Of a stretch of 64,000 nt of DNA, positions 10,160 to 39,391 are shown one piece after another (positions within the stretch are counted from its first letter, which is position 1; every line of letters starts with the position of its first letter). This DNA comes from Bacilli bacterium (GTDB lineage Bacteria > Bacillota_I > Bacilli_A > RFN20 > CAG-826), in NCBI GenBank assembly GCA_017445245.1, contig JAFSUM010000033.1:6520-70519 (forward strand), in the 5' to 3' direction. Position numbers and translations under genes: made by a program. The notes beneath the pieces are model-generated. The model was not told the DNA's origin. It ran no database searches and was given only the letters and a program-made list of their open reading frames with translations.

Positions 10160-10299
10160 AAGCCTGCAAAAAGCGACTTATGTTGAGTTCTGAATGTTTT
10201 TCGTCGAATTGCGCGCCTTTTAGCAAAGCCAAAAGGACGTAATAGCACGCGAATAATGTCCTCATGTATAATATTTCCATACCACGTGGGGGCATATAT

Positions 10300-13200
10300 A
10301 TGAAAAAACGACCACTATTTGCGTTAATGGGGGTTTTGCTGTTGTCTCTTTCTGCCTGCGGTGATGATAATCCGCCGGAAGAATCCTCTAGCAGCGAACC
10401 CGCATCTAGCCAATCTTCCGTCGCTGAGACGTCGGAAACTCCTTCTAGCGAATCCCAGGAACCTAGTAGCAGTTCCTCTAGGCCGAGCTCTTCTAGCTCT
10501 TCGCAAAGGCCTTCTTCTAGCCAGGAGCCTTCTTCGGAACCGACCCCGGGACCAGAACCCGAGCCCTCTTCCGAGTCTTCTTCGACTAGACCTAGCAGCT
10601 CTGGCACGAAGGAATCGAGCGAACCGGAACCCTCTTCCGAACCGCAGCCGTCTAGCAGCGAAGCGCCGTCCTCAGAACCTGAGCCGTCCTCGGAACCAGA
10701 ACCGGAACCTTCTTCTGAGCCTTCCTCCGAATCTTCTAGTGCAGAACCTGTGTACGACTTTGTCGAATTCGTGTGGACATTCGCCGACGGGGTTTATACC
10801 GCCAAGGCAAAATACGTTTCCGACCAGGACCCTTCCGATGTGCATTTGTTCGATGCGGAGATGTCTTACAAGGTCAAATTAGAGCCGACGTGCGAAGAAA
10901 AAGGCATCGGCGTCTTCACCGCTTCCTACGATGGCCATACGGATACTCGCGAAGTCGATATCGATCCCATTAGCCACGACTATAAGTTCGACTCCTTCGT
11001 CTGGGCCGAAGATTATTCCGCCCAAGCCAAGTACGTCTGCGCCCACGACGCCGAACACGTGAAGTACTACACGGCGGAAGTGGACGAAGAAGTGATCCGC
11101 GTCGCGACCTACGATCGGACGGGCTTTATCCGCTATACCGCCTCCTTCGAAGGCCATAGTGAGACCAAAGACCGCGAAACCGATGCCCTCTCTCCGTTCA
11201 CCTTCGAATTGAACGAAGACGGGACAGCCTACACCATCACCAAAATCGATAATCTCGATAACATGGAACTCTTGGTAATTCCCGCCGAATACGAAGGGCT
11301 CCCCGTCACCGCGATCGCCGACAATGTGGCCAATAACGCGCAGAGTCTCCGTAGGGTCGTCTTCCCCGAGACGCTTACTTCCATCGGCACGGGCTTCCTC
11401 GCCAATGCGCAAAAGCTCTCCTACGTCTATTTGCCCAAGACCATTCAGTCCATCGGGTCTTTGACCTTTGGCTATAGCCCGCGTGCCGTCTTTGTTTCCG
11501 ATGCGCCTTCCCGTCCATCCACGTGGAAATTCTCGACCTCCTATACCGCCTATTATGGATGTACGGAGGGCGCGAATCTCTTCACCGTTGACGGTGTTGT
11601 TTATAAGAAAACCGATGCAGGTCTCACCGTAATTGCTTCCGATCCGCTTCAAGTAGGCGGAGACGGCATCCTCTCTATCGGCGGCGAAACTCATAAAGTC
11701 ACCGTCGGTGAAGAAGCCCTTCCCGTCATCGGCATCAACATCTATGCCTTCTTCGGCGTTAACCGCGCCATCGTGGAACTCGATAGCTCTCTAACCATTG
11801 CCAACAATGCGTTTTACGATTGCACTGCGATGACGATTTACGCTCATGCCAGCTTCTCTTCCATCAGCAACGACAGCTCGCAAATCTACCGCGCCCCGAC
11901 GACTGCGGGAGACATCGTCCTCGAAAACGATTGGTATGGCGTCATCGCCAGCGGCCAGGCCGTGTTGCTCCATTACATTGGTGATGAATATGACATCACG
12001 ATCCCGACCTCCTTCATGGAAAACGGCGTTTCTACCGTCGCAGGTCACGCCATTTCGGGCAAAACCCTCCGTTCCATTTATGTTTCGTCCGCCATCCCCG
12101 CTCTCGAGCAATATGCGTTCGTCGTCAGCAACATCGCCTTGATGATGGATGCCGACAAGACCCCGTCTGGCTGGTCTTCCTTCGTGAGCGGTTCCAACAA
12201 TAGATACTATTACCGCGTTACCGAGGATAGTTTTATCGAGCACGACGGTGCCATCTACGTCGCCCATTACGATTCGTGGTACGAGAGGACCTATTTGGGC
12301 TTCTTCCGCCTCGTCGACCCTGAGTGTCAGGCCTTCGTCATCGCCGATGAGATTCTCGTCGGAGAAGAAAATCTGTCCGTCAAATCGATTCTTCCCAACG
12401 CTTTTATCGATAGCAGCGTCACCTGCGTCTACATCCCTAGAGACGTCGACACTATCTACAGCGATCCGGGCCTTACCAACGGCAAAGTGGGCTCCGTCAT
12501 CGTCTATACCAATGCTTCGGACCGTCCGAGCGGATGGAATACCAGCGCGATTTCAGGCCTCACGATTTGCTATGGCCAATCGATCGATAGCCTCTCTGGC
12601 CTCTTCATCAAAGACGGCCTTATCTATCAAACAATCGATAACGAAGGCGTCAAAACCTTGACGGTTCTCGGCTATCAGGGCGAGCAGCCTTCTGCGCTCG
12701 TCGTCCCTGATATCGTCGCTACCGAACAAGGCGACCTTCCCGTCACCGCCATCGGCGAACGGGCCTTCTATGGGATCAAAGGTGTTTCTAGCGTCACGCT
12801 GTCTGGCGTCGTCGAACTCGGGGCCTATGCTTTCGGCTCTTCTTCCATCGAAACGATCGACTTGGGGGATAGCCTCCAATCCATCGCCAACTATGCGTTC
12901 TATCAGTGCCATGACCTCGCCGAAGTTCACTTCCCGGAGAACACCCTCCGTCAAATCGGCACGGACGCGTTCTATTACTGCACCTCGCTACGTGAAGTGC
13001 ATATGCCTGCTTCGGTGACTTCCTTCGGCAACTATTGCTTTGGCAGCTGCAGCAATCTCGTTACCTTCACCTTCCCCGATGAATTCGAGGGTGAAATCCC
13101 GTCTTCCATGTTCTCCAACGACGGAGCCCTTACGGAAATCGTCATCCCCAGAGGCGTAACTTCCATCGGCTATGAGGCCTTCTCTGGTTGTTCTGGCCTA

Positions 13201-16125
13201 ATGAAAGTCAAAATCAGCGAAGGCGTGCAGTCGATTGGAGCCAACTGCTTCTCGAATTGTTCCTCCTTAATGCGCCTCGACATTCCCCTTTCCGTCACCT
13301 CTGTTGGCAACTATGCCTTCTCCGGTTTCACCAGCGCTTCGACCATCTTCATTGAAGCGACTAGCGTCTCCTGGAGCTACAACTGGAAATCCAATTGCCA
13401 AGCCAAAATCGTCTACGGCGTCATTCCCGATGGCGAGGGCAGCGCGGACGGCTTCTTCTATTACCTCAGTCAAGACTGCGCCTTCCTTGCGGGCGTCGAT
13501 AGTTCCATCACGGGTGAAGTGGTGGTTCCCGAAAATGTCGTCATCGATGGCAAACAGTATAAGGTCCGCAAAATCTTAGCCGGCGCCTTCAAGAACAACA
13601 CCTCCATCACCAGAGTCACCTTGCCCGAAGGCATCACCGCGATCGGCGACGAGGCTTTCTATGGCTGCAGCAACCTGACGGAGATCAACTTGCCCGAAGG
13701 CCTTGTCTCCATCGGCGATTCCGCCTTCTATAGCTGCAAGTCCCTCGCGGAACTCATCGTTCCCGATTCCTGCACCTCCCTTGGCAGACTCTTCATCCAA
13801 TACACCGCTTTGAAGAAAATCAGCATCCCCATGATGGATCGCCGCTACAGCGAATACTTCAATTCGGGCACGATTCCCGCCCTCTTCATCGTCCGCGGTG
13901 GGGCCCTTCCCGATAATGCGTTCTCCGGTTCTGCTCCCCAGGCGATCGAACTCTATGAAGGCGTCACGGCTATCGGCGCCAGCGCGTTCGCAAACGTTAG
14001 CAACATCTATCGTCTTATCGTTCCCGCTTCTGTGGAAACGGTCGGCAAAGGCGCCTTTAATGGCGCGGGTAATCTGACGGTCTATTTCCGGGCCAATGAG
14101 GCTGGCGCTTCTTGGGCTTCCGGCTGGAATACCGGCATGAACAAGGCCGTCTTCGGCTTCAACACCGACAACAAGGAAGTCTACGCTTCTGGCATCCATT
14201 ACCTTGTCGAGGAAGACCACGTGTCCGTTGTCTATTTCGATGGCGACGCCACGCAGGTCGATCTCCCCGCCGAAATCCGTGGCCTCCCCGTCACCCGCGT
14301 CGAAATTCAGGCGTTCCAAAACCAGGCGAACGTCAAAGTCATCACGGTGCCCAATACTGTAACCTTCATCGGCAAAGGTGCCTTCATGGGCTGCAGCGGC
14401 CTTGAGACGCTACGTGTCCCCTTCCTAGGCCAAGGCATCGGCAAAGAAAACTATCTCTGCTATTTCTTCACCGTCGGCGATCTCGCCTATTACACCACCG
14501 ACGACCAGCGCGGTGCGGTCATCCCCGCTTCGCTGCTCTACCTTCGCATCGATGGCGGCGCCCTCGTCGATAGTGCCTTTGGCGGTTCCGCTCACCTCAA
14601 AAAAATCACCTTGGGTGACAGCATCACGCGCTTTGGCTCCAACCTCTTTAGCGGTTGCACGTCCCTCGAATATAACCGCGATATCGACAGCGATAGCCCA
14701 ACCCAGCAGAACTACCTGGATTACATCGGCACCGAAAGTAACCCCTACATGGTGCTGGTAAAGCTCGACTACTGCGGTAAGGGAACCGTCCGCGTCCACG
14801 CAGACTGCGAAATCATCTATCAGGAGGCCTTTGCCAATAACACGAAGGCCCGCGTGGTCGTTTTGCCAGACGGCATAAAGGCCATCGGCATGAGGGCTTT
14901 CTACAACACCAACATCTATTCGGTGAACCTCCCCGATTCCATCACCTCCATCGGCAGTTACGCCTTCTCGAAGTCTTCGCTGCAGGGTGCCTACTTTGGC
15001 GAAGAGTCGCAGTGCACCTCCATCGATAACTACGCCTTCTACGATATCGTCGCCCTCGAAGGCCTGACCTTGCCCGGCCACATTTCGACCATCGGCAGCT
15101 ACGCCTTCTCCAAGACTTCGCTCACCCACATCGATGTTCCCGCTTCCTGCACCTATGTTTACACAGGCGCCTTCTCGGATGTCTATAACAGCTCCACCGT
15201 CTTCGTCTACGTTCCGTCTACGACCTGCGTGCAGTCGAAGGCCTTCGCCAATCTAGGCAATGCCCGCATCGTTACGGATGCCGACACCACGCCGAAGATC
15301 TGGGTCAGCGACTGGAATAGCGGCAGCACGAATGTCCGTTACGGCATCACCCACGACCGTATTTGCACTTCTGGTGACGTCGTTTACATCGTCGGCTATT
15401 ACGGAACGACCGGTGAAGCCATCGCCCCCGCGCCCGTCGCCTCGACCTATGCGGCCGGATCGCGTGATCTCGTCATCCCCAACCAGGTCATCCAAGGCGA
15501 ACGCCCGGCCTTCACGGTCACGGAAATCGCCCCGTACGCTTTCTATGGCTGCCTCTGGCTGAAATCCATCAGCTTTGAGGATGCCGCGGTGGAAATCGTC
15601 GGCGAATACGCCTTCTATAACTGCACCAACGTCACGAGCTGCGTGTTGAATGACGCAATGTATTACATCGGCAATCATGCCTTCTACGCCCTTAACGATG
15701 CGGCCTACACCGCGAAGAACTACATTATCTATGTCGGTTCTTCCAGCAATCCGTATCTGCTATGTATCGGCGCGAACCGTTCGTTCTCGGGTGGCACCGT
15801 GACGATTGAAAATGGCTGCAAATTCATCGATAGCTATGCCTTCTATCAGCGCAGCGTCTCCTCGGTGACCTTGCCCGCCGGCCTTCTCGGTATTTGGGAG
15901 TCGGCCTTTGCGGACAACTCGGCGTTGGCCGGCAAGACCATTTTCATCCCTGGCAGCGTCCTCTACATGGGCCAATGCATCTTCCAATATAACCGCGGCA
16001 TGAGCTTGTATCTCCGTTGCGGCGCCTCATCGCGTCCTAGCGGTTGGAGCGAAGCCTGGAACTACAAGAACAACCCCATCATCAGCACGGATACCTATAG
16101 CACCACTTGGGGCGTCAGCGCCTAA
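10300..16125 (+). CDS. Giant surface lipoprotein with BspA-type leucine-rich repeats
   Basis: The signal peptide MKKRPLFALMGVLLLSLSAC carries a lipobox. An S/P/E-rich linker follows. After that come dozens of repeats of the form IP..VTSIG..AF..C..L..I. Confidence 0.8.
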   Translation: MKKRPLFALMGVLLLSLSACGDDNPPEESSSSEPASSQSSVAETSETPSSESQEPSSSSSRPSSSSSSQRPSSSQEPSSEPTPGPEPEPSSESSSTRPSSSGTKESSEPEPSSEPQPSSSEAPSSEPEPSSEPEPEPSSEPSSESSSAEPVYDFVEFVWTFADGVYTAKAKYVSDQDPSDVHLFDAEMSYKVKLEPTCEEKGIGVFTASYDGHTDTREVDIDPISHDYKFDSFVWAEDYSAQAKYVCAHDAEHVKYYTAEVDEEVIRVATYDRTGFIRYTASFEGHSETKDRETDALSPFTFELNEDGTAYTITKIDNLDNMELLVIPAEYEGLPVTAIADNVANNAQSLRRVVFPETLTSIGTGFLANAQKLSYVYLPKTIQSIGSLTFGYSPRAVFVSDAPSRPSTWKFSTSYTAYYGCTEGANLFTVDGVVYKKTDAGLTVIASDPLQVGGDGILSIGGETHKVTVGEEALPVIGINIYAFFGVNRAIVELDSSLTIANNAFYDCTAMTIYAHASFSSISNDSSQIYRAPTTAGDIVLENDWYGVIASGQAVLLHYIGDEYDITIPTSFMENGVSTVAGHAISGKTLRSIYVSSAIPALEQYAFVVSNIALMMDADKTPSGWSSFVSGSNNRYYYRVTEDSFIEHDGAIYVAHYDSWYERTYLGFFRLVDPECQAFVIADEILVGEENLSVKSILPNAFIDSSVTCVYIPRDVDTIYSDPGLTNGKVGSVIVYTNASDRPSGWNTSAISGLTICYGQSIDSLSGLFIKDGLIYQTIDNEGVKTLTVLGYQGEQPSALVVPDIVATEQGDLPVTAIGERAFYGIKGVSSVTLSGVVELGAYAFGSSSIETIDLGDSLQSIANYAFYQCHDLAEVHFPENTLRQIGTDAFYYCTSLREVHMPASVTSFGNYCFGSCSNLVTFTFPDEFEGEIPSSMFSNDGALTEIVIPRGVTSIGYEAFSGCSGLMKVKISEGVQSIGANCFSNCSSLMRLDIPLSVTSVGNYAFSGFTSASTIFIEATSVSWSYNWKSNCQAKIVYGVIPDGEGSADGFFYYLSQDCAFLAGVDSSITGEVVVPENVVIDGKQYKVRKILAGAFKNNTSITRVTLPEGITAIGDEAFYGCSNLTEINLPEGLVSIGDSAFYSCKSLAELIVPDSCTSLGRLFIQYTALKKISIPMMDRRYSEYFNSGTIPALFIVRGGALPDNAFSGSAPQAIELYEGVTAIGASAFANVSNIYRLIVPASVETVGKGAFNGAGNLTVYFRANEAGASWASGWNTGMNKAVFGFNTDNKEVYASGIHYLVEEDHVSVVYFDGDATQVDLPAEIRGLPVTRVEIQAFQNQANVKVITVPNTVTFIGKGAFMGCSGLETLRVPFLGQGIGKENYLCYFFTVGDLAYYTTDDQRGAVIPASLLYLRIDGGALVDSAFGGSAHLKKITLGDSITRFGSNLFSGCTSLEYNRDIDSDSPTQQNYLDYIGTESNPYMVLVKLDYCGKGTVRVHADCEIIYQEAFANNTKARVVVLPDGIKAIGMRAFYNTNIYSVNLPDSITSIGSYAFSKSSLQGAYFGEESQCTSIDNYAFYDIVALEGLTLPGHISTIGSYAFSKTSLTHIDVPASCTYVYTGAFSDVYNSSTVFVYVPSTTCVQSKAFANLGNARIVTDADTTPKIWVSDWNSGSTNVRYGITHDRICTSGDVVYIVGYYGTTGEAIAPAPVASTYAAGSRDLVIPNQVIQGERPAFTVTEIAPYAFYGCLWLKSISFEDAAVEIVGEYAFYNCTNVTSCVLNDAMYYIGNHAFYALNDAAYTAKNYIIYVGSSSNPYLLCIGANRSFSGGTVTIENGCKFIDSYAFYQRSVSSVTLPAGLLGIWESAFADNSALAGKTIFIPGSVLYMGQCIFQYNRGMSLYLRCGASSRPSGWSEAWNYKNNPIISTDTYSTTWGVSA
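10360..10746 (+). repeat. Low-complexity Ser/Pro/Glu-rich linker (SSEPEP-type) inside the LRR lipoprotein gene
   Basis: The translation reads ...SSSSEPASSQSS...EPEPSSEPQPSSSEAPSSEPEPSSEPEPEPSSEPSSESSS. Confidence 0.85.
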
Positions 16126-29741: not shown

Positions 29742-31229
29742 GTGCAATTCAAGAAGCTTCCTATCCTTGCCCTGTCCTCTTTACTCCTAAGTGCGTGCGG
29801 AGGCGCCTCGTCTTCGGGCGACGTTTCTTCGTCTATTCCCGTCGAGGGGGATTTCGTTATCAAAGAGAAGACAGAAATCGAATTCCTTTGCATGGTCGAC
29901 GGCAGTTATTACTCCCTCCTTGAACGGATGGTTGAAGATTTCGAAAAGACCGAACCCAATGTCGACGTGAATTTGACCAACCCTCTTGGCTCGGGTAATT
30001 ACAGCGCATTAGAAAAGACCGTGGTTGCCGGGTTCTTCCGCGAGGATTATCCAGACCTCGTCCAATGCTATCCCGATAACGTCGTGAAGTATCATGACCG
30101 CGGCTATGTCGTAAACGTCGACACGTATCGTTCAAATCCCGATTACGGAATCAATTCGGACACGGATTACATCAAGGCTTTCCTCGATGAAGGCTCTTCC
30201 TATAAAGACGAAGGCACGTATTCCTTGCCTTTCTGTAAGTCCACGGAGCTCCTTTATTACAACGCGGATGTTTTGATCGGCTTGGATCTATCTTCGATCA
30301 ACGCTTCGATTAACAACGGAAAACCGTTGGACGCGGCATATCTTGATAACCTTAGTTGGGAAGAACTGTTCGAACGTCTTTGCCCTGCGATTAAGGCCTA
30401 TGACGAAGCGCAGGATGCCGATCACAAAATCATGAAGACGACCGAGAACTCGGGCATTGTCTCCTATGATTCCGACGAAAACTTCTTCATTACTTTGGCC
30501 AACCAATACGGCTACGGCTATACGAGCTTCGATAAAAACGGTAAGGCGAGTATCGACTATAACAACGATGGCATGAAGGGTTTGATGTTAAAGCTCAACC
30601 AAGCAAAGGCGAATGGATATCTCCAAACGCACAAGACGTACAACGATTATGTCTCGTATCTGTTCCAAACCCGCGAAGCCCTTTTCACCATCTCTTCGAC
30701 CGCTGGGTTAAGTTACAACTTCGTCAGCGAGAGGGATGTCCAGTCCAAAGGTTTGACGCCCTTCTCCATCGGCGTGGCCAAATTGCCCCATGCCGAGGAC
30801 AGGGATTACGTTTCGATTAACCAGGGCCCCTCGGTTTGCGTTCTCGACCATAAAGACGAAAACCGCGCCTTGGCCTCCTATCTCTTATGGAAATACGTCA
30901 CCGATGTCGAACACGCGAAGGAGTGGTCTTTGGCCACGGGTTACATCGGCGTCCGTAACAGTGTCTACGAAAGCGACGAATACAAAGCGATGATCGCCGT
31001 CGATGATAAGAGCACCATCTATGAAGTTGGTGCGGCCGATAATCTCAAGAAGATTGCCGATGTTAAAGAGATGACCTTTAATACGCCCGTCTTCCGCGGT
31101 TCGAGCAACGCACGCACTAACGTTGGGTTGTTGCTCGCGGATTGTTTAAACGAAGTAGACCTTCCATCTAAGATCGACCAGCTCTTTGCCGACTCGGTCG
31201 CGGACACGCTTAGCTACATGCCTCAATAA
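29742..31229 (+). CDS. Extracellular solute-binding lipoprotein (ABC sugar-binding type), orphan
   Basis: The signal peptide (V/M)QFKKLPILALSSLLLSAC carries a lipobox. Overall the protein looks like a family-1 solute-binding protein. No permease or ATPase gene is adjacent. Confidence 0.75.
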   Translation: MQFKKLPILALSSLLLSACGGASSSGDVSSSIPVEGDFVIKEKTEIEFLCMVDGSYYSLLERMVEDFEKTEPNVDVNLTNPLGSGNYSALEKTVVAGFFREDYPDLVQCYPDNVVKYHDRGYVVNVDTYRSNPDYGINSDTDYIKAFLDEGSSYKDEGTYSLPFCKSTELLYYNADVLIGLDLSSINASINNGKPLDAAYLDNLSWEELFERLCPAIKAYDEAQDADHKIMKTTENSGIVSYDSDENFFITLANQYGYGYTSFDKNGKASIDYNNDGMKGLMLKLNQAKANGYLQTHKTYNDYVSYLFQTREALFTISSTAGLSYNFVSERDVQSKGLTPFSIGVAKLPHAEDRDYVSINQGPSVCVLDHKDENRALASYLLWKYVTDVEHAKEWSLATGYIGVRNSVYESDEYKAMIAVDDKSTIYEVGAADNLKKIADVKEMTFNTPVFRGSSNARTNVGLLLADCLNEVDLPSKIDQLFADSVADTLSYMPQ

Positions 31230-31248
31230 TTGAGAGTTTTTGATACGA

Positions 31249-31455
31249 ATGCGAGAAGAATACGATTTCAGCAAAGGAAAGAAGAATCCCTATGCAAAAC
31301 AACCAGCGAAACGGGTGACAATCGAACTCCCGAGGACGTGATTACTATTTCAAACGCAGGCGAAAGAGGCCGGCATCCCATATCAAACACTCATCAACCT
31401 CTATTTGACTGACTGCGCGCGAAACGGAAAGCGTCTAGTTATTTCCTGGAATTAA
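31249..31455 (+). pseudogene. BrnA-type (CopG/RHH-like) antitoxin gene disrupted by an in-frame TGA and local frameshifts
   Basis: My own translation gives MREEYDFSKGKKNPYAKQPAKRVTIELPRT*LLFQTQAKEAGIPYQTLINLYLTDCARNGKRLVISWN. The expected EDVIT(Y)F segment is readable only in another frame (31333-31350). Confidence 0.55.
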
Positions 31456-31516
31456 GCGATCAAAATCACCTTTGTTTTTTGCTGTTTTCTGCAAAAAGCC
31501 GGTTTTTGAATGGATT

Positions 31517-32035
31517 TTAGATTAAAGAAAGCGGCTTTTTATTGCGATAAATGCAAAGCCTAGTGGTATATCCGTTATCTTCCACAGGTTCATTTTCGGA
31601 GACGAGTTCAAAGTCAGGATGGGCATCGAGGTTCTCGAAGAACACCTCTGCCTCACCATCCGCGTCGACTTTATTTAAGGAAACCTCGTCGACATAAGGG
31701 AGCATCTGACGGTAGATGGAAGCGCCACCGATGACGTAGACGTCACCAGCCTTTTTGGCCTCGTAGATGAGGCGCTTGAATTCTTCCATCGTGTGGGCGG
31801 GAATCGTGTTCTCATATTCGTGGGAATAGTCCGCGGACAAAACGATGTTGATGCGGTTAGGCAACGGCTTTTGGTTTGGGAAGGAAAGAAGCGTCGCTTC
31901 GCCCATGGCTACGGTATGGCCCGAGGTGGTCTCGCGGAACACCTTCATGTCCTTGGGCAGGCGAAAAAGAAGGCCGCCTTTTTTGCCGATGCCGAAATTC
32001 TTGTCGCAGTTAAGGATGGAGATGACTTTGCTCAT
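31517..32035 (-). CDS. folA: Dihydrofolate reductase
   Basis: Contains FGIGKKGGLLFRLPKDMKVFRETT, PLPNRINIVLS and VIGGASIY. Its start overlaps the thyA stop by 4 nt. Confidence 0.85.
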   Translation of the reverse strand: MSKVISILNCDKNFGIGKKGGLLFRLPKDMKVFRETTSGHTVAMGEATLLSFPNQKPLPNRINIVLSADYSHEYENTIPAHTMEEFKRLIYEAKKAGDVYVIGGASIYRQMLPYVDEVSLNKVDADGEAEVFFENLDAHPDFELVSENEPVEDNGYTTRLCIYRNKKPLSLI

Positions 32036-32862
32036 ATGGCGACGGGAATCTTCTCCTCCAGAACTTCATATTCGTAATCGATGAGTTTGAAGTCATCGGT
32101 GGTAAAGGCGTAGAAGTCTTTGACCTCGGGGTTGATCCAAAGCTTCGGCGCGGGATGTAACGGCTTGGCGATGACTTTCTTAACGAGAGGGATGTGGCGG
32201 TCGTAGATGTGCGCGTCGGCAATAACGTGGAGCAGCGTTCCGGCCTTTAATCCCGAAACTTGGGCGAGCATGTGCAGAAGCAAGGCGTATTGGGCCACGT
32301 TCCAGTTGTTCGCGGTGAGCATGTCGTTGCTACGCTGATTGAGAATGCCGTTAAGGGTATCGCCCGAGACGTTAAAGGTCATCGAATAGGCGCAGGGATA
32401 AAGATTCATCTCATGCAGGTCGTCGAAATTGTAGATGTTGGTCATGATTCGACGGGAAGAAGGGTTGTGCTTCAAATCGTAAAGAACGCGGTCGACTTGG
32501 TCGAATTCGCCTTCGGGGTAGATGGATTTTTTGGCGAGCTGATAGCCATAGGCCTTTCCGATTGAACCCGTTTCGTCGGCCCAGGAATCCCAAATGTGGG
32601 AATGGAGGTCATGGATGTTATTGGATTTCTTTTGCCAAATCCAAAGCAACTCATCTAAACAACTCTTAAACGCGGTCCGACGAATGGTAAGGATCGGGAA
32701 CTCTTCCTGCAGATTATAACGGTTCGTGACCCCAAAGATTTTGATGGTATGAGCGGGGGTGCCATCTTCCCAATGGGGGCGCACGGGCAAATGCTCATCG
32801 GAGAATCCGTTCTCCAAGATATCGTGCATGTTTTGGATAAATATTTCGTCAGCGCGGCTCAT
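32032..32862 (-). CDS. thyA: Thymidylate synthase (ThyA)
   Basis: Contains GTPAHT, ELLWIWQ, NPSSRR and the active-site Cys in LYPCAY. The C-terminus reads LWINPEVKDFYAFTTDDFKLIDY. The ATG at 32862 is chosen by alignment to remembered Bacillus ThyA. The alternative start at 32901 adds 13 hydrophobic residues. Confidence 0.9.
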   Translation of the reverse strand: MSRADEIFIQNMHDILENGFSDEHLPVRPHWEDGTPAHTIKIFGVTNRYNLQEEFPILTIRRTAFKSCLDELLWIWQKKSNNIHDLHSHIWDSWADETGSIGKAYGYQLAKKSIYPEGEFDQVDRVLYDLKHNPSSRRIMTNIYNFDDLHEMNLYPCAYSMTFNVSGDTLNGILNQRSNDMLTANNWNVAQYALLLHMLAQVSGLKAGTLLHVIADAHIYDRHIPLVKKVIAKPLHPAPKLWINPEVKDFYAFTTDDFKLIDYEYEVLEEKIPVAI

Positions 32863-32869
32863 GGCAAAG

Positions 32870-32875
32870 ATTATA
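32870..32875 (-). promoter_or_regulatory. TATAAT -10 hexamer 7 nt upstream of the thyA ATG (leaderless candidate)
   Basis: The minus strand reads TGCCTTATAATCTTTGCC-ATG, with no Shine-Dalgarno. Confidence 0.4.
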
Positions 32876-32955
32876 AGGCAAAAGGAAGGAAAATGAAGCA
32901 TAGCTTCACCCTTTGCTATATCATTAGAAGCTAGATAGGGAAAAGGAGAGCAGGA

Positions 32956-33651
32956 ATGGATTTCGTCGGCATGGAAAAACTATCGCTCGTCGACTTCGAC
33001 GATAACCTCACCGCGACCCTTTTCATGGCGGGTTGCCCTTTCCGTTGCCCCTTTTGCCATAATGGCGATCTCGTCCTGCATCCAGAGAAGGCCGAACCGA
33101 TTCCTTTCGAAGAAGTCCTAACCTACCTAAAGAAGCGCCAGGGCGTCCTTGACGCGGTTTGCATCACGGGCGGCGAGCCTACTCTTATGCCCGACCTCGA
33201 AGACAAGATTCGCGCGATCCGTGACCTCGGCTATAAGATCAAACTCGATTCCAACGGCTTCCAGCCTCACGTTTTGGAAAACCTTATCGGCAAAGGCCTG
33301 CTCGACTATGTGGCGATGGACATCAAAAACTGTCCCGAGAAATATGACCTTACAATCGGTACCCATGTGGATCTCGATTTGATTGAGCGTTCGATTCGTC
33401 TATTGATGAATTCGGGCATCGACTACGAATTCCGTACGACGACAATTGAGGAATTCCATAGCGAGGAAGACATTGAAAAACTCGCCCGATGGATTCAAGG
33501 GGCGAGTCGGTATTTCCTGCAGAAGTACATCGATTCCGAGAACTGCATCCAGCATTACTTCCATGCGATTTCGCCGCAGAAAGCGGATAGGTATTTGCAA
33601 ATCGTGCGTAAATACGTGCCGAATGCGCAGTTGCGCGGTTTCGACGATTAA
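32956..33651 (+). CDS. nrdG: Anaerobic ribonucleotide reductase activating protein (radical SAM)
   Basis: AAAGGAGAG Shine-Dalgarno. Contains SLVDFDDNLTATLFMAGCPFRCPFCHN (CxxxCxxC) and ITGGEP. Confidence 0.85.
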   Translation: MDFVGMEKLSLVDFDDNLTATLFMAGCPFRCPFCHNGDLVLHPEKAEPIPFEEVLTYLKKRQGVLDAVCITGGEPTLMPDLEDKIRAIRDLGYKIKLDSNGFQPHVLENLIGKGLLDYVAMDIKNCPEKYDLTIGTHVDLDLIERSIRLLMNSGIDYEFRTTTIEEFHSEEDIEKLARWIQGASRYFLQKYIDSENCIQHYFHAISPQKADRYLQIVRKYVPNAQLRGFDD

Positions 33652-34556
33652 CGGCTGAGATATTTGGCGATTTCAACGCCGGCGATCGCGCCGTCACTGG
33701 TCGCGGTGATGACTTGGCGGATGCCTTTCCGACGGCAATCGCCGACGGCATAGACGCCAGGGGTCTTGGTTTCCATTTTGTCGTTGGCGAGGATGAAGCC
33801 GCGTTCATCAAGATCGACGATGCCTTTGAAGCGTTCGTTGTCGGGTTGCTGTCCGATGCAGATGAAGACGCCACTGGCTTTATAGGTGACCTTCTCTTTC
33901 GTCTGGGTATCTTCAAAGAGGACGCCTTCGATTTCGTTTTCGCCAAGGAATTCGACAGAGGCGAGGTTATGACGGTAGGAGATGTTTTCGATGTGCTTGA
34001 TGCGTTCGATAAGAATCTCGTCGGCGAAGAAATGATCGAAGAGGGTCGCGATTTGGACGTGGGTGCAGATATCGGAGAGGGAAATCGCGTATTGGAGAGC
34101 GGTGTTCGCGTCGCCGATGATAATAACATCCTGCTTGGCGAAGAACGCGCCATCGCAGACCGCGCAATAGGAGATGCCGTGTCCGACCAATTCGTCTTCG
34201 CGGGCGAGCCCGAGTTTCTTATGCTCGCAGCCCGTGGCTAATACGACGGTTTTGCCCTCGTATTCGTTGAAGTCCGTTTTGACAGTAAAGGTACCGTTAG
34301 GTTTCTTGATGACCTCCATGCCGTTTTCGACTTCGAAGCTGGCGCCCAGATCCGTAATCTGATCAAAGAGTTGGCTCGCGAAATCTTCGCCCGCGATCGA
34401 GGTGATGGAAGGGAAATTTTCTAGGCGCGGGGACTTGGCGACTTGGCCGCCGATGGATTCGCGCTCTAGCAGGATAACCTTCTTGCCAGCCCTTAAGAGA
34501 TAGAGGGCGGCGGTCATGCCCGCAGGGCCGCAACCGATGATGATGGAATCGTACAT
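33648..34556 (-). CDS. Thioredoxin-reductase-like flavoprotein that keeps the CAVC redox centre but lacks NADPH-binding motifs
   Basis: The FAD-binding motif IIIGCGPAG is present, as are the redox centre SYCAVCDG and the C-terminal GVYAVGD. The canonical GGGxxAxEEA reads IIGDANTALQYA, and the canonical HRRxxxR reads LFDHFFAD. Confidence 0.8.
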   Translation of the reverse strand: MYDSIIIGCGPAGMTAALYLLRAGKKVILLERESIGGQVAKSPRLENFPSITSIAGEDFASQLFDQITDLGASFEVENGMEVIKKPNGTFTVKTDFNEYEGKTVVLATGCEHKKLGLAREDELVGHGISYCAVCDGAFFAKQDVIIIGDANTALQYAISLSDICTHVQIATLFDHFFADEILIERIKHIENISYRHNLASVEFLGENEIEGVLFEDTQTKEKVTYKASGVFICIGQQPDNERFKGIVDLDERGFILANDKMETKTPGVYAVGDCRRKGIRQVITATSDGAIAGVEIAKYLSR

Positions 34557-34577
34557 GGGAATTCTCCTTTAGATGAA

Positions 34578-34603
34578 GAAGGCCCCTGAAATCAGGAGCC
34601 TTC
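34578..34603 (-). terminator. Strong hairpin between nrdD and the TrxR-like gene (partial terminator or processing site)
   Basis: The minus strand reads GAAGGCTCCTGA..TCAGGGGCCTTC followed by TTCTTC. The AAAGGAGAA Shine-Dalgarno of the next gene follows. Confidence 0.35.
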
Positions 34604-34622
34604 ATGGGGGTTTTGCCGTGAA

Positions 34623-37004
34623 TTAGGCTTTGACGGATTCGATATAGCCTTTGATGAGAGAGGCGTTTTCGAAGGTCTTGTAGCCTTCTTTGCTCGGGAC
34701 GATGAGGGTCGGGGCCTGCTTGATGCCATAGGCGTCGACGAGGTCGCGGTTGGAGGCGGCGTCGACGTTGGTGTAGTGGATGCCAGCCTTATCGAGGAGC
34801 ATTTTCGCGAGCTTGCAGTTCGGGCAGGTCGGGGAAGTGAAGAGGACGAGGCCTTCAAGCTTCTGGACAGGGGCCGCTTTCTGCTCGGGTTCGACCGCAC
34901 AGGAGGCGCCTTCTTTGGCGATGGGTTCCTGGTCTTCGTGGATGACGTAGGTCTTGCGCATGTTGAATTCCTGAACCTTGCCGGCGTTCCAGTTCTTGAC
35001 CGGACGGTAGTAACCGGTGATGCGGGAGTAGACTTCGGTTTCCTTGCCGCAGGTCGGGCAACGATATTGCTCGCCGGAGATATAGCCGTGATCGGAGCAG
35101 ATCGAATAGGTCGGCGACATCGTGTAATAGGGGAGCTTGTAGTTGTTCGCGATCTTGCGGACGAGCTTCATGCAGGATTCCCAGCTCGGGAGGCGCTGAC
35201 CAAGGAAGCTATGGAAGACGGTGCCGGAGGTATAGAGGGTCTGGAAGCGGTCTTCGATGTCGAGGGCTCCGAAGATGTCATCGGTATAACCGACGGGGAG
35301 GTGGCTCGAGTTGGTGTAATAGGGGGTCTCGCCATTTTGGGAAGCGGTGATGATGTCGGGGTAACGCTGCTTGTCATGCTTAGCAAGGCGGTAGGAGGTG
35401 GATTCGGCGGGAGTGGCTTCGAGGTTATAGAGGTCGCCATATTGTTCCTGGAAGTCGGAGAGGCGGTTCCTCATGTGGTTGAGGACCTCTTCGGTGAAAT
35501 CCTGAGCTTCCTTATAGGTCAAGTCGACGCCGATCCAACGGGCGTTGAGGCAGGCTTCGTTCATACCGACCAAACCGATGGTGGAGAAGTGGTTGTTGAA
35601 GGTGCCGAGGTAATGTTTGGTATAGGGGTAGAGGCCAGCTTCGAGGAGTTTGCTGACGGTCTGGCGCTTCACTTTGAGGGAGCGCGCGGAGATTTCCATT
35701 AAGCGGTCGAGTCTAGAGTAGAAGTCGGCCTTATCGGTCGCGAGGTAAGCGATACGGGGCATGTTGATGGTGACGACGCCGATGGAACCGGTCGATTCGC
35801 CGGAACCGAAGAAACCACCGGTCTTTTTGCGGAGTTCGCGGAGGTCGAGACGGAGACGGCAGCACATCGAACGGACGTCGCTAGGCTTCATGTCGCTGTT
35901 GATGTAGTTGGAGAAATAGGGAGTGCCGTATTTCGCGGTCATCGTGAAGAGAAGCTTGTTGTTCTCGGTCGGGGACCAGTCGAAATCGCGGGTGATGGAA
36001 TAGGTCGGGATCGGATATTGGAAGCCACGGCCATTCGCGTCGCCTTCGATCATCGTTTCGATGAAGGCTTTGTTGACCATCGCCATTTCTTCTTTGCAAT
36101 CGGCGTAGGTGAAGTCCATTTCCTCGCCGCCGACGATCGCCGGGAGGTTGGCCATGTCATCGGGCACGGTCCAGTCGAGGGTGATGTTGGTGAAGGGGGA
36201 TTGGGTGCCCCAGCGGGAGGGTGTGTTGACGCCATAGATGAAGGATTGGATGCACTGTTTGACGTCTTTGTAGGTCAAGTGGTCTTTCTTGACGAATGGG
36301 GCGAGGTAGGTATCGAAGGAAGAGAACGCCTGCGCGCCTGCCCATTCGTTTTGCATGATGCCGAGGAAGTTGACCATCTGGTTGCAGAGGGTCATGAGGT
36401 GACGGGCGGGGGAGGAGGTGATCTTGCCCGGGACGCCGCCGAGACCTTCTTTGATGAGTTGCTTCAAAGACCAGCCAGCGCAGTAGCCGGTAAGCATCGA
36501 AAGGTCATGGATGTGGATGTCGGCGTTTCTATGGGCATCGGCGATTTCCTTGTCATAGACCTCGGAGAGCCAGTAGTTGGCCGTAACGGCGCCGGAGTTG
36601 GAAAGGATAAGGCCACCGACGGAATAGGTGACGGTGGAGTTTTCCTTGACGCGCCAGTCGGCGACGCGGAGATAGGAGTCGACGACGTTTTTGAAGTCGA
36701 GGCTCGTGTCTTTGACGTTGCGGATCGCGGCGTGCTTTGCACGGTAATCCATATAAGAACGGGCAACATCGACGTAGCCGGTCTGAATCAAGACGATTTC
36801 AACCGCGTCTTGGATGTCTTCGACGCCGACGATTTCGTTTTTGATTTTGCTGTTCAGAGTGCTGGTGACGCGCAAAGCCAAAAGCTCGATGATATCCGAG
36901 GTGAATTCCTGGTGTTCGGCCCGGAAAGCGCGCTCGATGGCACTTTCGATCTTCTTCAGGTCGAACGGGACGAAGGAGCCGTCTCTTTTACATACTTGTA
37001 ACAT
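34623..37004 (-). CDS. nrdD: Anaerobic (class III) ribonucleoside-triphosphate reductase with a C-terminal glutaredoxin/NrdH-like domain
   Basis: An ATP-cone begins the protein (MLQVCKRDGSFVPFDLKKI). Also present are the thiyl loop SMCCRLRL, the Zn site CSDHG...CPTCG and the glycyl-radical motif SRITGYYRPV. The protein then continues for about 100 more residues, ending in LVLFTSPTCPNCKLAK...QAPTLIV (thioredoxin fold with CPNC). Confidence 0.9.
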   Translation of the reverse strand: MLQVCKRDGSFVPFDLKKIESAIERAFRAEHQEFTSDIIELLALRVTSTLNSKIKNEIVGVEDIQDAVEIVLIQTGYVDVARSYMDYRAKHAAIRNVKDTSLDFKNVVDSYLRVADWRVKENSTVTYSVGGLILSNSGAVTANYWLSEVYDKEIADAHRNADIHIHDLSMLTGYCAGWSLKQLIKEGLGGVPGKITSSPARHLMTLCNQMVNFLGIMQNEWAGAQAFSSFDTYLAPFVKKDHLTYKDVKQCIQSFIYGVNTPSRWGTQSPFTNITLDWTVPDDMANLPAIVGGEEMDFTYADCKEEMAMVNKAFIETMIEGDANGRGFQYPIPTYSITRDFDWSPTENNKLLFTMTAKYGTPYFSNYINSDMKPSDVRSMCCRLRLDLRELRKKTGGFFGSGESTGSIGVVTINMPRIAYLATDKADFYSRLDRLMEISARSLKVKRQTVSKLLEAGLYPYTKHYLGTFNNHFSTIGLVGMNEACLNARWIGVDLTYKEAQDFTEEVLNHMRNRLSDFQEQYGDLYNLEATPAESTSYRLAKHDKQRYPDIITASQNGETPYYTNSSHLPVGYTDDIFGALDIEDRFQTLYTSGTVFHSFLGQRLPSWESCMKLVRKIANNYKLPYYTMSPTYSICSDHGYISGEQYRCPTCGKETEVYSRITGYYRPVKNWNAGKVQEFNMRKTYVIHEDQEPIAKEGASCAVEPEQKAAPVQKLEGLVLFTSPTCPNCKLAKMLLDKAGIHYTNVDAASNRDLVDAYGIKQAPTLIVPSKEGYKTFENASLIKGYIESVKA

Positions 37005-37410
37005 GTGTTTTTTCCTCCAATTTTTACTAGTCCAACACAGGGCTTCAAAAACCGACAGTCAGGCGGAGCCGCCACTATGCTGGGGGCGTGATAAGACCCT
37101 CCCTAGGTCTTGCGTGTCATATGTTACAGGCGAGGGGGTAAAAATCAATGCCTTTGCTTGGGCCTTCTTTTTCTTAAGAAAAGTGGCACTTGAAAAACGG
37201 ATTTTGGGCCCTCTCTTTCGAAGCCATCGAAGAAATCAAAAATGGATTAGTAGTTTTTTAGTGTCAATCCATCCCTCGAAAGTGGGAAAGTTGATGTTCC
37301 TTTATTTCGACAGTGTCTAAGAAAACCAATAATCATTAGGCCGTATCTGAAAATCCTGTTGTTTTCATTAAAGGGCCTATTGCCCAGGAGAAAATAAAGA
37401 ACCCCAAGTT

Positions 37411-37439
37411 TTGCCCAAAAAGAGCGGTGTCTTTATATT
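37411..37439 (+). promoter_or_regulatory. Sigma-70-type promoter candidate (TTGCCC, 17-bp spacer, TATATT) for the MscL-like gene
   Basis: Direct reading. It would give a 5' UTR of about 70 nt ending in an AGGAGG Shine-Dalgarno. Confidence 0.4.
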
Positions 37440-37514
37440 CACGCGCTCACAATAACGTTGAAATTAGAAAAGACCGAATTAAAATCAACGCAGTCTTTCA
37501 GGAGGTATTTATTC

Positions 37515-38237
37515 ATGGCAAAACTAACGAAAGAAGAAAAAGCCGCTCGCAAACTTGAAAGAAAGAAAGCGGGCAAAGGACTCTGGGCTGAATTCAAGGA
37601 GTTCATCAACCGTGGCAACGCGTTCATGCTCGCCGTCGGCGTCGTCATCGGCGGTGCGTTCTCCGCGATCGTTAATGCGTTCGTCAACATTCTGACCTCG
37701 CTCGCCACCTGGCCGGTTCCCGGTGGTCTTGCTGGCTTGGTTAGCCCGCTTCCCGCGATTACCGACGTCCAAAAAGGTCTTGGTGCCGGCGCCCACGTTG
37801 ATATCGGCATTGGCCAACAATTCGAAGCTGGTGATTTGATGGCAAAAGCCGAAGCCCTCGCCACCAAGCTTTATGGTGCTGGTTATTCCGACGTCCAGTT
37901 CATCGACGCGAAGAACATGCTAACCAGCAACTACACCCTCTACGGCAAAACCTATTACTACAACGCAACTGCCCTTATCAATTGGGGCACCTTGCTCAAT
38001 GCGGTCATCGCCTTCATCATCATCGCGATCGTCCTCTTCATCATCGTCAAGGTCGCCAACGCCGCTGCCGCGAAAAAGGCCGCCGCGGAAGCCAAAGCCC
38101 GCGAACGCTACTACGAGAAGCACCCCGAAGAACGTCCCGTCGAACCCGAACCCGGTGTTCCCGAGCCGACCGAAAAGGAACTCCTCGCTTCCATCCTTGC
38201 CGAGCTTAAGAAACAAAACGAACCCGCCAAGAAGTAA
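37515..38237 (+). CDS. mscL: Large-conductance mechanosensitive channel (MscL) variant with an expanded TM1-TM2 loop
   Basis: AGGAGG Shine-Dalgarno before the ATG at 37515. EFKEFINRGNAFMLAVGVVIGGAFSAIVNAFV matches the MscL TM1 signature. The C-terminal ELLASILAELKKQN matches the MscL C-helix. The protein is 240 aa. Confidence 0.75.
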   Translation: MAKLTKEEKAARKLERKKAGKGLWAEFKEFINRGNAFMLAVGVVIGGAFSAIVNAFVNILTSLATWPVPGGLAGLVSPLPAITDVQKGLGAGAHVDIGIGQQFEAGDLMAKAEALATKLYGAGYSDVQFIDAKNMLTSNYTLYGKTYYYNATALINWGTLLNAVIAFIIIAIVLFIIVKVANAAAAKKAAAEAKARERYYEKHPEERPVEPEPGVPEPTEKELLASILAELKKQNEPAKK

Positions 38238-38301
38238 GTCGCTTGAAATCGGGCCTCGCAATCGCGGGGTCCTTTTTCTTTGCCTATGTCCGTCCTCAAC
38301 A

Positions 38302-38307
38302 TAAAAT
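38302..38307 (+). promoter_or_regulatory. TAAAAT -10 hexamer 7 nt upstream of the ATG at 38315 (leaderless candidate)
   Basis: The sequence reads CATAAAATatgcggcATG, with no Shine-Dalgarno. Confidence 0.4.
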
Positions 38308-38314
38308 ATGCGGC

Positions 38315-39391
38315 ATGGAATACAAATTTGAACGCATCGAAAACTTCCGCGACCTCGGCGGATTAAATGCCAGATATGGCAAAACCGCGGAACACGTCAT
38401 CTATCGTTCGGCGGACGTCTCGAGGGCGACAGAAGCCGATTTAAAGAAACTAGAAGAGCTTGGAATCAAGACGGTTATCGACTTAAGAGGCCCTGAACTT
38501 CGCAAAGTTTTCCCTAGTCCTTTAAAAGGAAAACAGGGTATCCATGTCATCGAAATCGATATCGAAAATGGCGATAAGTTTCCCGATAAAGAAGAAGACA
38601 TCGTCGATTTATACATGTCGATGTATGCCGACGGATCTGCGACGCGCGCCATGGTAAACGCTCTTATCAACGAACCTAAGCCCATTCTCGTCCACTGCGT
38701 GGCCGGCAAAGACCGCACAGGCATCAACATGGCCTTGCTTCAAATGGCAAACGGCGTCGACCGCGAGACAATTTGTAAAGACTTTCTCGCCTCGTATAAC
38801 AATCTTCCCCAATTGCAACAAATGCTAATTGAGCACGGGCATGTATTGCCTTCCTTTGCGTTTAAGGGCAACCCAGCGATTATCAACACGGTCCTAGACC
38901 AATTCCTCGCTAAATATGGCGGTGTCGAGAATTATCTGGCCGGTTTTGGGATTCCAGATGACGACATCGTTGCCTATTGCAATCTCCTTGGTGTTCAGGA
39001 ACAGTCGGCGGGCGCGGTTGTCTTCTTTAACAACAAAGTTCTTATCGAACACATGCGCATGGGTCACTATTCCATGCCGAAGGGACATGTCGAAGAAGGC
39101 GATGGCGGCCTAAAAGAAACCGCCAAGCGCGAAATCCGCGAGGAGACGGGGCTTGAAGCCAGAATCCTCGATGGGTTTGAGACCTCCAGCGTTTATTCTC
39201 CTAAACCTGGCCACATCAAAGAAGTGCGTTGGTTCATTGCCGAAGTCGATAATGACAAAACCATTTGCCAGCTTGAAGAAGTCGAGGTTTGCTACTTTCT
39301 CGAACCCGAGGACGCCTACCGCGTTTTAAGCCACGACAGCGATCGAGCCATTCTTAAAAAAGCCTGCAAATTCTATTTCAGACAAAAATAA
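38315..39391 (+). CDS. Fusion of a protein-tyrosine/dual-specificity-type phosphatase (CX5R) and a NUDIX hydrolase
   Basis: The N-terminal half contains NFRDLGG and HCVAGKDRTG (the CX5R P-loop). The C-terminal half contains the Nudix box GHVEEGDGGLKETAKREIREETGLEA. Confidence 0.75.
   Translation: MEYKFERIENFRDLGGLNARYGKTAEHVIYRSADVSRATEADLKKLEELGIKTVIDLRGPELRKVFPSPLKGKQGIHVIEIDIENGDKFPDKEEDIVDLYMSMYADGSATRAMVNALINEPKPILVHCVAGKDRTGINMALLQMANGVDRETICKDFLASYNNLPQLQQMLIEHGHVLPSFAFKGNPAIINTVLDQFLAKYGGVENYLAGFGIPDDDIVAYCNLLGVQEQSAGAVVFFNNKVLIEHMRMGHYSMPKGHVEEGDGGLKETAKREIREETGLEARILDGFETSSVYSPKPGHIKEVRWFIAEVDNDKTICQLEEVEVCYFLEPEDAYRVLSHDSDRAILKKACKFYFRQK

Follow-up and report, generated by a model that had tools for sequence, protein, structure and literature searches.

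A class III ribonucleotide reductase with a C-terminally tethered CPNC redoxin and a linked TrxB-like flavoprotein in gut Firmicutes

Introduction

In a 64,000-nucleotide (nt) stretch of a Bacilli bacterium contig (JAFSUM010000033.1, positions 6,520 to 70,519 of the forward strand, assembly GCA_017445245.1), hereafter referred to as the window, we analyzed an nrdD gene that encodes a class III ribonucleotide reductase (RNR) fused at its C-terminus to a redoxin domain with a thioredoxin fold. The next gene downstream encodes a flavoprotein disulfide reductase homologous to thioredoxin reductase (TrxR), tentatively referred to here as the TrxB-like protein. From the observed architecture, residue identities, fold, conservation and synteny, we propose, with a probability of roughly 0.6, that the fusion protein is a thiol-dependent class III RNR of the NrdD2 type, in which the disulfide reductant is part of the same polypeptide, attached through a flexible C-terminal tether, and is recycled by the TrxB-like protein. 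The steps by which electrons would move along this route, and the donor that would feed it, are proposed further below.

A preliminary description of this DNA, made from the sequence alone, had suggested a self-contained thiol-driven module. Because the fusion is conserved and is accompanied by an MCCR finger loop, an NrdD2-type Glu and a syntenic TrxB-like gene (in 65-68 of 80 loci), a thiol-driven reduction module is the best-supported reading; the module cannot be called self-contained, given that the flavoprotein has lost its NAD(P)H motifs.

Results

Architecture of the fusion protein

The nrdD-redoxin fusion gene (34623..37004, minus strand) is a single open reading frame (ORF) of 793 amino acids (aa) plus a stop codon, and the DNA across the NrdD/redoxin junction, read directly, contains neither a stop nor a change of frame. 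Reading from the N-terminus, and always on the minus strand, it encodes an ATP-cone, the allosteric activity site (residues 3-92, 36729..36998; PF03477, E 4e-23), a class III RNR catalytic core (residues 121-686, 34947..36644; PF13597, E 1e-192, with the whole profile covered), a flexible linker of ~30 aa (residues 687-716, 34857..34946), and the tethered redoxin domain of 77 aa (residues 717-793, 34626..34856). The protein scores 527.7 bits against TIGR02487 (cut-off 326), which identifies it as a class III RNR, and 1121 bits against the NCBIfam equivalog PRK08270, whose match stops at residue 687. Beyond that point, Glutaredoxin PF00462 covers residues 720-768 with 30.6 bits (gathering score 22.9), overlapped by weaker matches to Pfam families of the Thioredoxin type.

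Residues 689-793 together with the stop codon correspond to nt 34623-34940, the span given in the preliminary description, and cover the linker and the added domain. The strings it quoted are all present: SRITGYYRPV at residues 660-669, SMCCR at 379-383, LVLFTSPTCPNCK with C727 and C730 (nt 34815-34826), and QAPTLIV. Its remark that NrdD usually ends soon after the glycyl-radical motif also agrees with the relatives, as among 68 motif-bearing representatives at 50% identity, 49 have tails of 22-43 aa after the motif and 19 have tails of at least 110 aa.

An AlphaFold2 (AF2) model of the full protein, built on a 41-sequence alignment, has a mean predicted local distance difference test (pLDDT) score of 85.3. 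Its top Foldseek matches are the class III RNR structures of Prevotella copri, Streptococcus thermophilus, Thermotoga maritima and phage T4 (E 1e-24 to 1e-35), none of which contains the redoxin domain.

Distribution of the fusion

The genome scan covered one genome per GTDB species and found a relative in at least 597 genomes; locus counts given in this paper refer to the best 80 of these, and counts of residue conservation to 81 fusion sequences. These best 80 species genomes (68-86% identity) all align over query residues 1 to ~790. In a collection of 5.8 billion proteins, PF13597 and PF00462 occur together in 120 of the 120 best matches (82-90% identity), which come from many independent assemblies. 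A search with the C-terminal 105 aa alone against the big protein database returned only 31 short fragments, which give no taxonomic picture.

We give practically no credence to the possibility that the fusion is an artefact, in which a missed stop or a frameshift merged two separate genes, nrdD and a small redoxin gene. A few database entries do have the redoxin as its own small ORF (P0125, P0133), but these stand-alone entries are frameshift-fragmented assemblies with an unchanged gene order; in one locus nrdD is in three pieces (L081) and in another both ORFs overlap by 22 nt (L082). The 120 nearest protein clusters and the 80 independent species genomes have the fusion uninterrupted without exception, and an origin by missed stop or frameshift was rejected on these counts. 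The fusion noticed in the preliminary description is thus genuine and conserved. It is found in uncultured Bacilli (including Ca. Onthovivens), Erysipelotrichaceae, Christensenellaceae, Lachnospiraceae and Oscillospiraceae, and in the isolates Ruminococcus turbiniformis, Pseudoflavonifractor phocaeensis and Anaerosporobacter faecicola. Far from being rare, the architecture is common among gut Firmicutes, and hence less exceptional than had been implied.

Several variants were found among the more distant relatives. Two of them (P0278 and P0295) combine a QCCR finger loop, a motif like that of NrdD3, with a fused PF00462 redoxin, so that the fusion extends beyond MCCR enzymes and may have had more than one origin. 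A 782-aa relative (P0181, 47% identity) retains the ATP-cone, NRDD and thioredoxin-like architecture but has no MCCR finger loop, glycyl-radical motif, Zn-site cysteines or CxxC, and probably represents an NrdD-redoxin pseudoenzyme without catalytic activity, from an AT-rich organism. In two other NrdDs (P0259 and P0292), a C-terminal Radical_SAM (NrdG-like) domain stands in the place of the redoxin; NrdD-activase fusions have been mentioned for unicellular eukaryotes (PMC4390871). Insertions of intein type are frequent among NrdD relatives, such as a LAGLIDADG domain at RWGGQ|SPF in P0205, and many NrdD representatives of 1000-1900 aa match the query in 2-5 separate stretches.

Catalytic residues of the NrdD core

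The NrdD2 subtype is defined by an extra Cys beside the thiyl Cys together with an active-site Glu (Wei et al., summarized in PMC4493059). In the window protein, the finger loop S379-M380-C381-C382-R383 (35856..35870, minus strand) aligns its M380-C381-C382-R383 with M288-G289-C290-R291 of T4 NrdD, so that C382 is identified as the thiyl-radical Cys and C381, at the position of T4 G289, as the extra Cys of NrdD2. The contrast between M-C-C-R here and a G-C-R loop in formate-type enzymes, as originally described, is therefore borne out by the M-G-C-R of formate-dependent T4. The SMCCR loop is present in 80 of the 81 fusions and the adjacent Cys pair in every one, while M380, the formate-type Met, is kept in 80.

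The active-site Glu of NrdD2 type is Glu529 in YNLEATPAE (35418..35420, minus strand), which aligns with E495 of T. maritima (NIEQVPAE) and is found in 81/81 fusions; the same position is occupied by Tyr in the formate-dependent T4 and S. thermophilus enzymes and by Leu in that of P. copri. Equally invariant are Cys175 in GYCAG (36480..36482, minus strand), the beta-A or "bottom-face" Cys that aligns with Tyr124-Cys125 of T. maritima, and the glycyl-radical motif SRITGYY with Gly664 (35007..35027, minus strand), which aligns with RI(T/V)GY of the solved NrdDs. Aligned to characterized NrdDs, the window enzyme thus has the two Cys and the Glu of NrdD2, and the formate-type Met as well. The full NrdD2 signature (C175, C381 and E529) is invariant in the 81 fusions, and thiol-dependent turnover is what it predicts. 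Between Glu529 and the glycyl radical, a putative Zn site, C636-x2-H639...C649-x2-C652 (35049..35099, minus strand), aligns with the Cys-rich region of the T. maritima and P. copri NrdDs and may bind a metal.

The preliminary description had suggested that the adjacent Cys pair of the finger loop could be the redox-active partner. This assignment was revised, as the analogy with the NrdD of Neisseria bacilliformis places the disulfide between C381 and C175 (PMC9669993); in that enzyme, a disulfide between the finger-loop Cys and the beta-A Cys is reduced by thioredoxin (PMC9669993, PMC4390871).

The redoxin domain and its linker

Modeled alone with AF2, residues 714-793 adopt a beta-alpha-beta-alpha-beta-beta-alpha thioredoxin fold (pLDDT 93.5), and the same unit is seen at residues 720-792 in the full model. 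The domain contains the redox pair C727-P-N-C730 (nt 34815-34826, minus strand, in the string TCPNCK) and the cis-Pro P765 (nt 34710-34712, minus strand, within QAPTLIV). All 81 fusions have a CPxC motif and the A-P-T cis-Pro, and 77 have CPNC itself. This invariance, despite only ~41-74% identity of the domain among homologs, indicates selection for redox activity.

NrdH-redoxins are marked by CVQC and WSGFRP(D/E). The window domain has CPNC and no WSGFRP, and its TIGR02194 score (25.7 bits, cut-off 85.75) does not place it in NrdH. Nor does it qualify as a classical glutaredoxin, as it has CPNC instead of CPYC, Q-A-P for T-V-P and no GGxdD, and it scores 26.5 bits for Grx3 (TIGR02181, cut-off 90). 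The NrdH-type label given to it earlier was accordingly dropped. NrdH, YruB, Grx3, MJ0307-Trx and Trx were all tried as family assignments for the redoxin and rejected, each lying far below its curated NCBIfam cut-off; Foldseek with the lone domain gave generic matches only, to thioredoxins at a TM score of ~0.7 and with no subfamily favored. By sequence, we regard it as a minimal CPNC redoxin that probably works much like NrdH while standing outside the NrdH family. In glutaredoxins, TVP and GGxdD serve in glutathione binding, and the lack of these motifs points, as in NrdH, to reduction by an enzyme of the TrxR type.

The linker has an AF2 pLDDT below 50 at residues 696-712, and in homologs the spacing from the glycyl-radical Gly to the CPxC ranges from 36 to 115 aa, with no conservation of sequence. 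A linker that is disordered and variable in both length and sequence is as expected of a tether. Cys patches (CxC, CC or CxCC, often after Ala) occur in 50 of the 81 linkers and the remaining 31 are free of Cys; the linker of the window protein has one Cys, Cys702, within GASCAVE. Such patches might be an optional shuttle thiol pair similar to the C-terminal tail of class I RNRs, or might have no function.

The TrxB-like flavoprotein

The TrxB-like gene (33648..34556, minus strand) encodes a protein of 302 aa that scores 297.9 bits against TIGR01292, under the cut-off of 343.45. It follows nrdD on the same strand after a gap of 66 nt and is preceded by an AAGGAG ribosome-binding site. Its homologs are directly downstream of nrdD in 65 of the 80 loci and at most 1.6 kb away in three more. 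In L059, L061 and L064, unrelated genes lie between nrdD and trxB-like.

The FAD motifs (IIGCGPAG and AVGDCR) are retained in the window protein, as is the redox motif C131-A-V-C134 (nt 34155-34166, minus strand), and a CxxC is present in 67/67 aligned sequences (that of the window and 66 syntenic orthologs). Neither of the NAD(P)H motifs, i.e., the pyrophosphate motif GGGxxAxE and the 2'-phosphate motif HRRDxxR, is present in the window protein. Compared with the Bacillus cereus TrxR (7aaw), it has GDANTALQY for GGGDSAVEE, with the degenerate pyrophosphate motif G148-D-A-N-T-A at nt 34098-34115, and TLFDHFFA for HRRDTLRA, with T171-L-F-D-H-F-F in the place of HRRDxLR at nt 34026-34046 (both on the minus strand). 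In the literature, NAD(P)H-independent TrxRs are defined by the loss of both motifs (PMC5627308, PMC10880999).

The aligned orthologs fall into three motif classes. The TLFD class, to which the window belongs, has both motifs replaced (GDANTA/TLFDxFF) and comprises 31-33 sequences, depending on two atypical ones; the QNL class (23 sequences) has an intact GGGNSALQEA and a replaced HRR motif (QNLxxLTGE), a pattern like that of the NADH-type TR3; and the third class (11 sequences) is canonical (GGGxxA/HRRDxFR). Each class conserves its own replacement motifs, which points to altered function, not decay, and the classes suggest repeated switching of the electron donor within one group of RNR-linked reductase orthologs. 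We considered whether the window protein is a clostridial FFTR and rejected this assignment, since its similarity to NADPH-type TrxRs is much higher. That its highest similarity is to NADPH-type Firmicute TrxRs suggests that it lost the NAD(P)H motifs independently.

Discussion

A proposed electron relay

In the route that we propose, NrdG and S-adenosylmethionine would install the radical on Gly664, from which a thiyl radical would form on Cys382 and abstract the 3'-H from the substrate, with Glu529 possibly acting as a base or a proton relay. The Cys175/Cys381 dithiol would give the two reducing equivalents and turn into a disulfide, as in the NrdD of N. bacilliformis. The tethered CPNC (Cys727/Cys730) would then swing in on the ~30-residue linker and re-reduce Cys175/Cys381 by thiol-disulfide exchange, after which the oxidized redoxin would be recycled by the co-transcribed TrxB-like flavoenzyme through its FAD and Cys131/Cys134. 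With both NAD(P)H motifs lost, the latter would require an external donor that is not a pyridine nucleotide; the analogy with FFTR, DTR and TRi makes reduced ferredoxin or flavodoxin, in place of NADPH or NADH, the most plausible candidate. The linker begins a few residues past the glycyl loop, which abuts the finger loop in solved NrdDs, so the tether starts by the active site, and from there ~30 disordered residues should span the distance to either subunit's active site. Class III RNRs have been reviewed as having no external Cys pair like that in the C-terminal tail of class I and II enzymes (PMC4390871); the tethered redoxin would supply this function in cis.

A more far-reaching possibility, which we put forward tentatively and on balance doubt, is that, in a large group of gut Firmicutes, anaerobic dNTP synthesis has a dedicated electron wire. 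Low-potential ferredoxin or flavodoxin would feed an NADPH-blind TrxB paralog, whose origin would be independent of FFTR, DTR and TRi, and the electrons would pass on through the tethered redoxin to the NrdD disulfide. The orthologs of this reductase would then have switched donor at least two times, with the HRR class using NADPH, the QNL class possibly NADH, and the TLFD class neither.

Evidence for and against the relay

Several observations weigh against the tethered, thiol-driven relay. The redoxin scores for NrdH, YruB, Grx3 and Trx are far under the curated cut-offs, and access of the redoxin to the buried disulfide of a class III active site is so far a proposal. The TrxB-like gene is missing within 4-6 kb at 11 of the 80 fusion loci, and the TrxB-like protein is nearest to the NADPH-type Firmicute TrxR 7aaw (E 7e-61, versus 1e-34 for DTR 5j60 and 2e-26 for FFTR 6gna). 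No gene for ferredoxin or flavodoxin is found in the 64-kb window or recurs near nrdD across the 80 loci; the window also has no thioredoxin or pyruvate formate-lyase (PFL) signature. For the fusion clade as a whole, the donor and the electron-transfer steps are drawn from sequence and analogy. Finally, Met380, the thiosulfuranyl partner in the formate pathway, is present in all but one of the fusions, and its retention leaves formate use possible.

This last point is the core of an alternative with two reductants, in which formate would be physiological, perhaps even the main reductant, through a Met380/Cys175 thiosulfuranyl route, and the redoxin and TrxB-like protein would take over when formate is scarce. 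Burnim et al. described "MCCR plus Glu" enzymes as the majority of double-Cys class III RNRs, for which either reductant is possible in principle (PMC9669993), and the fusions keep Met380 alongside both C381 and E529. However, a conserved fused redoxin and a syntenic reductase would be a costly outlay for a back-up route, Glu529 stands where formate-dependent enzymes have Tyr or Leu, and neither pfl nor any other gene related to formate is found in the window, a 64-kb sample that tells little about a whole genome. We therefore consider the dual arrangement rather unlikely. Less probable still, in our judgment, is that the redoxin protects or repairs the enzyme, for instance by holding its Zn-site or active-site cysteines in the reduced state following oxidative stress, or acts as a redox switch of its activity, with the TrxB-like protein being a general TrxR that is adjacent by chance or through co-regulation. 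The loci that lack the flavoprotein gene would fit such a role, as would the absence of the redoxin from every characterized family of RNR reductants, and thioredoxin has been reported as activating, not reducing, for the class III RNR of E. coli (PMC4390871). Yet the complete NrdD2 triad accompanies the fusion in every sequence examined, the TrxB-like protein diverged into specialized classes and still stayed beside nrdD, and in the precedent of the Grx-NrdB fusion the redoxin is catalytic.

Comparison with known systems

Three reductants are known for class III RNRs: formate for NrdD1, thioredoxin for NrdD2, and, for NrdD3, an NrdH-like redoxin that receives electrons via a ferredoxin:disulfide reductase (PMC9176816, Table 1). 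The window enzyme shares the beta-A Cys, the extra Cys by the thiyl Cys and the active-site Glu with the NrdD2 enzymes of T. maritima and of N. bacilliformis, the latter served by Trx/TrxR/NADPH, and a dithiol reductant with a thioredoxin fold is expected in both cases. In place of a free thioredoxin, the window enzyme has a redoxin covalently fused at the C-terminus; the NrdD2 finger loop is SCCR, and that of the window is MCCR, with the Met kept. Unlike the Trx/TrxR/NADPH system of N. bacilliformis, the linked reductase of the window has no NAD(P)H motifs. The enzymes also differ in subclass, as those of N. bacilliformis and T. maritima belong to NrdDh and the published Grx:NrdD fusion to NrdDd, while the window protein matches PRK08270.

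The NrdD3 of Methanosarcina barkeri resembles the proposed relay in that a glutaredoxin-like redoxin feeds a class III RNR with electrons from a donor other than a pyridine nucleotide (PMC9176816). In M. barkeri, however, the redoxin is separate and its reductase is an Fe-S enzyme of the FTR type, in place of a fused redoxin and a flavin-containing TrxB homolog, and NrdD3 has QCCR and no Glu where the window enzyme has MCCR and Glu529.

Redoxin-RNR fusions have been described before. In the Grx-ATP-cone-NrdB fusion of Facklamia ignava, the Grx domain is an efficient RNR reductant (PMC6187632); that fusion is N-terminal, glutathione-dependent and located on the class I radical subunit, in contrast to the C-terminal fusion on NrdD. 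One Glutaredoxin:NrdD fusion of subclass NrdDd, from Lachnospiraceae bacterium TWA4, was catalogued in 2018 (PMC6187632, Table S1). It probably has the same architecture as that of the window, although it is a table entry alone and neither its spread nor a linked TrxB-like gene is reported there. In the literature that we searched, we found no study that addresses what the fusion does, how widely it occurs or how it is linked to an NADPH-blind TrxB.

Among flavoprotein reductases, the clostridial FFTR, the cyanobacterial DTR/FFTR, the TRi of Desulfovibrio and the TrxR of Thermoplasma are similar to the TrxB-like protein in having an FAD site and a CxxC, a degenerate GGGxxAxE and no HRRDxxR. 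The replacement motifs differ, being GEGxxAxN and TQ/NGK in TRi and GDANTALQY and TLFDxFF in the window protein.

Gene neighborhood

The nrdG gene (32956..33651, plus strand) encodes the radical-SAM activase, with its CxxxCxxC at CPFRCPFC, and scores 214.6 bits for NrdG2 (TIGR02495, cut-off 131). It is convergent with the TrxB-like gene, their 3' ends overlapping by 4 nt. On its other side lie thyA (32032-32901; PF00303, E 3e-86) and folA (31517-32035; PF00186, E 5e-36), both on the minus strand. The gene order folA-thyA-nrdG-TrxR-nrdD is thus as first described; it is divided into three transcription units (nrdD with the TrxR-like gene, nrdG, and thyA-folA) and does not form a single one. An nrdG is found in the flank of 63 of the 80 loci, and clustering of the ORFs within 4 kb on either side of nrdD at the 80 loci gave no recurrent family beyond NrdD, TrxB-like and NrdG. 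In three Lachnospiraceae loci that have no TrxB-like gene (L063, L077 and L079), thyA-folA directly follows the nrdD fusion, and the pair is also near nrdD in the window and in two further loci (L001 and L002), a recurring link of anaerobic deoxynucleotide and thymidylate synthesis.

The gap of 66 nt between nrdD and trxB-like contains an imperfect hairpin, GAAGGCYCC...GGRGCCTTC (34579-34605, minus strand), which has no T-run, so that no terminator is predicted there; a role in processing or stability is conceivable. A search for the NrdR box (ACACWATATWTWGTGT, up to 3 mismatches) gave one match at chance level, at 43615, and none upstream of nrdD. An Rfam scan of 31000-38500 gave no matches, and a scan for promoters and terminators did no better than on shuffled sequence.

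Divergent from nrdD is a gene for an MscL homolog (37458-38237, plus strand), which at 259 aa is longer than the usual ~130 aa owing to a long extension rich in Lys, Ala and Glu; MscL genes adjoin nrdD in two other loci as well (L081 and L011). It is followed by an ORF (38243-39391, plus strand) that joins a domain of the tyrosine-phosphatase family (PF13350) to a NUDIX hydrolase domain. Elsewhere in the window, 10264-16125 (plus strand) encodes a BspA-type leucine-rich repeat protein of 1953 aa (PF13306, 520 bits in 7 stretches), probably a surface or adhesion protein.

Significance

Many strict anaerobes, the dominant Clostridia of the gut among them, depend on class III RNR alone for their DNA precursors, and the reductant of the majority "MCCR" class has been explicitly posed as an open question (PMC9669993). 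A redoxin-RNR fusion as such is already known and is unlikely to astonish a specialist of these enzymes. What is new here is the variant, a putative reductant fused to a class III RNR of the thiol type, together with a syntenic reductase whose predicted donor specificity varies. The practical yield is limited to better gene annotation and, possibly, a narrow-spectrum target in gut anaerobes. For experimental work, the fusion offers a ready stoichiometric system for studying redoxin access to the active site that lies buried in a glycyl-radical RNR, and the three motif classes of the TrxB-like protein offer a natural series on how a TrxR changes its donor. That many families have retained the fused redoxin with a dedicated reductase beside it argues strongly, at the genomic level, for reduction by thiols and gives direct genomic leverage on the choice between formate and thiols in MCCR enzymes. 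If true, the more far-reaching possibility of a dedicated electron wire would settle that choice for MCCR-type class III RNRs in favor of thiols.

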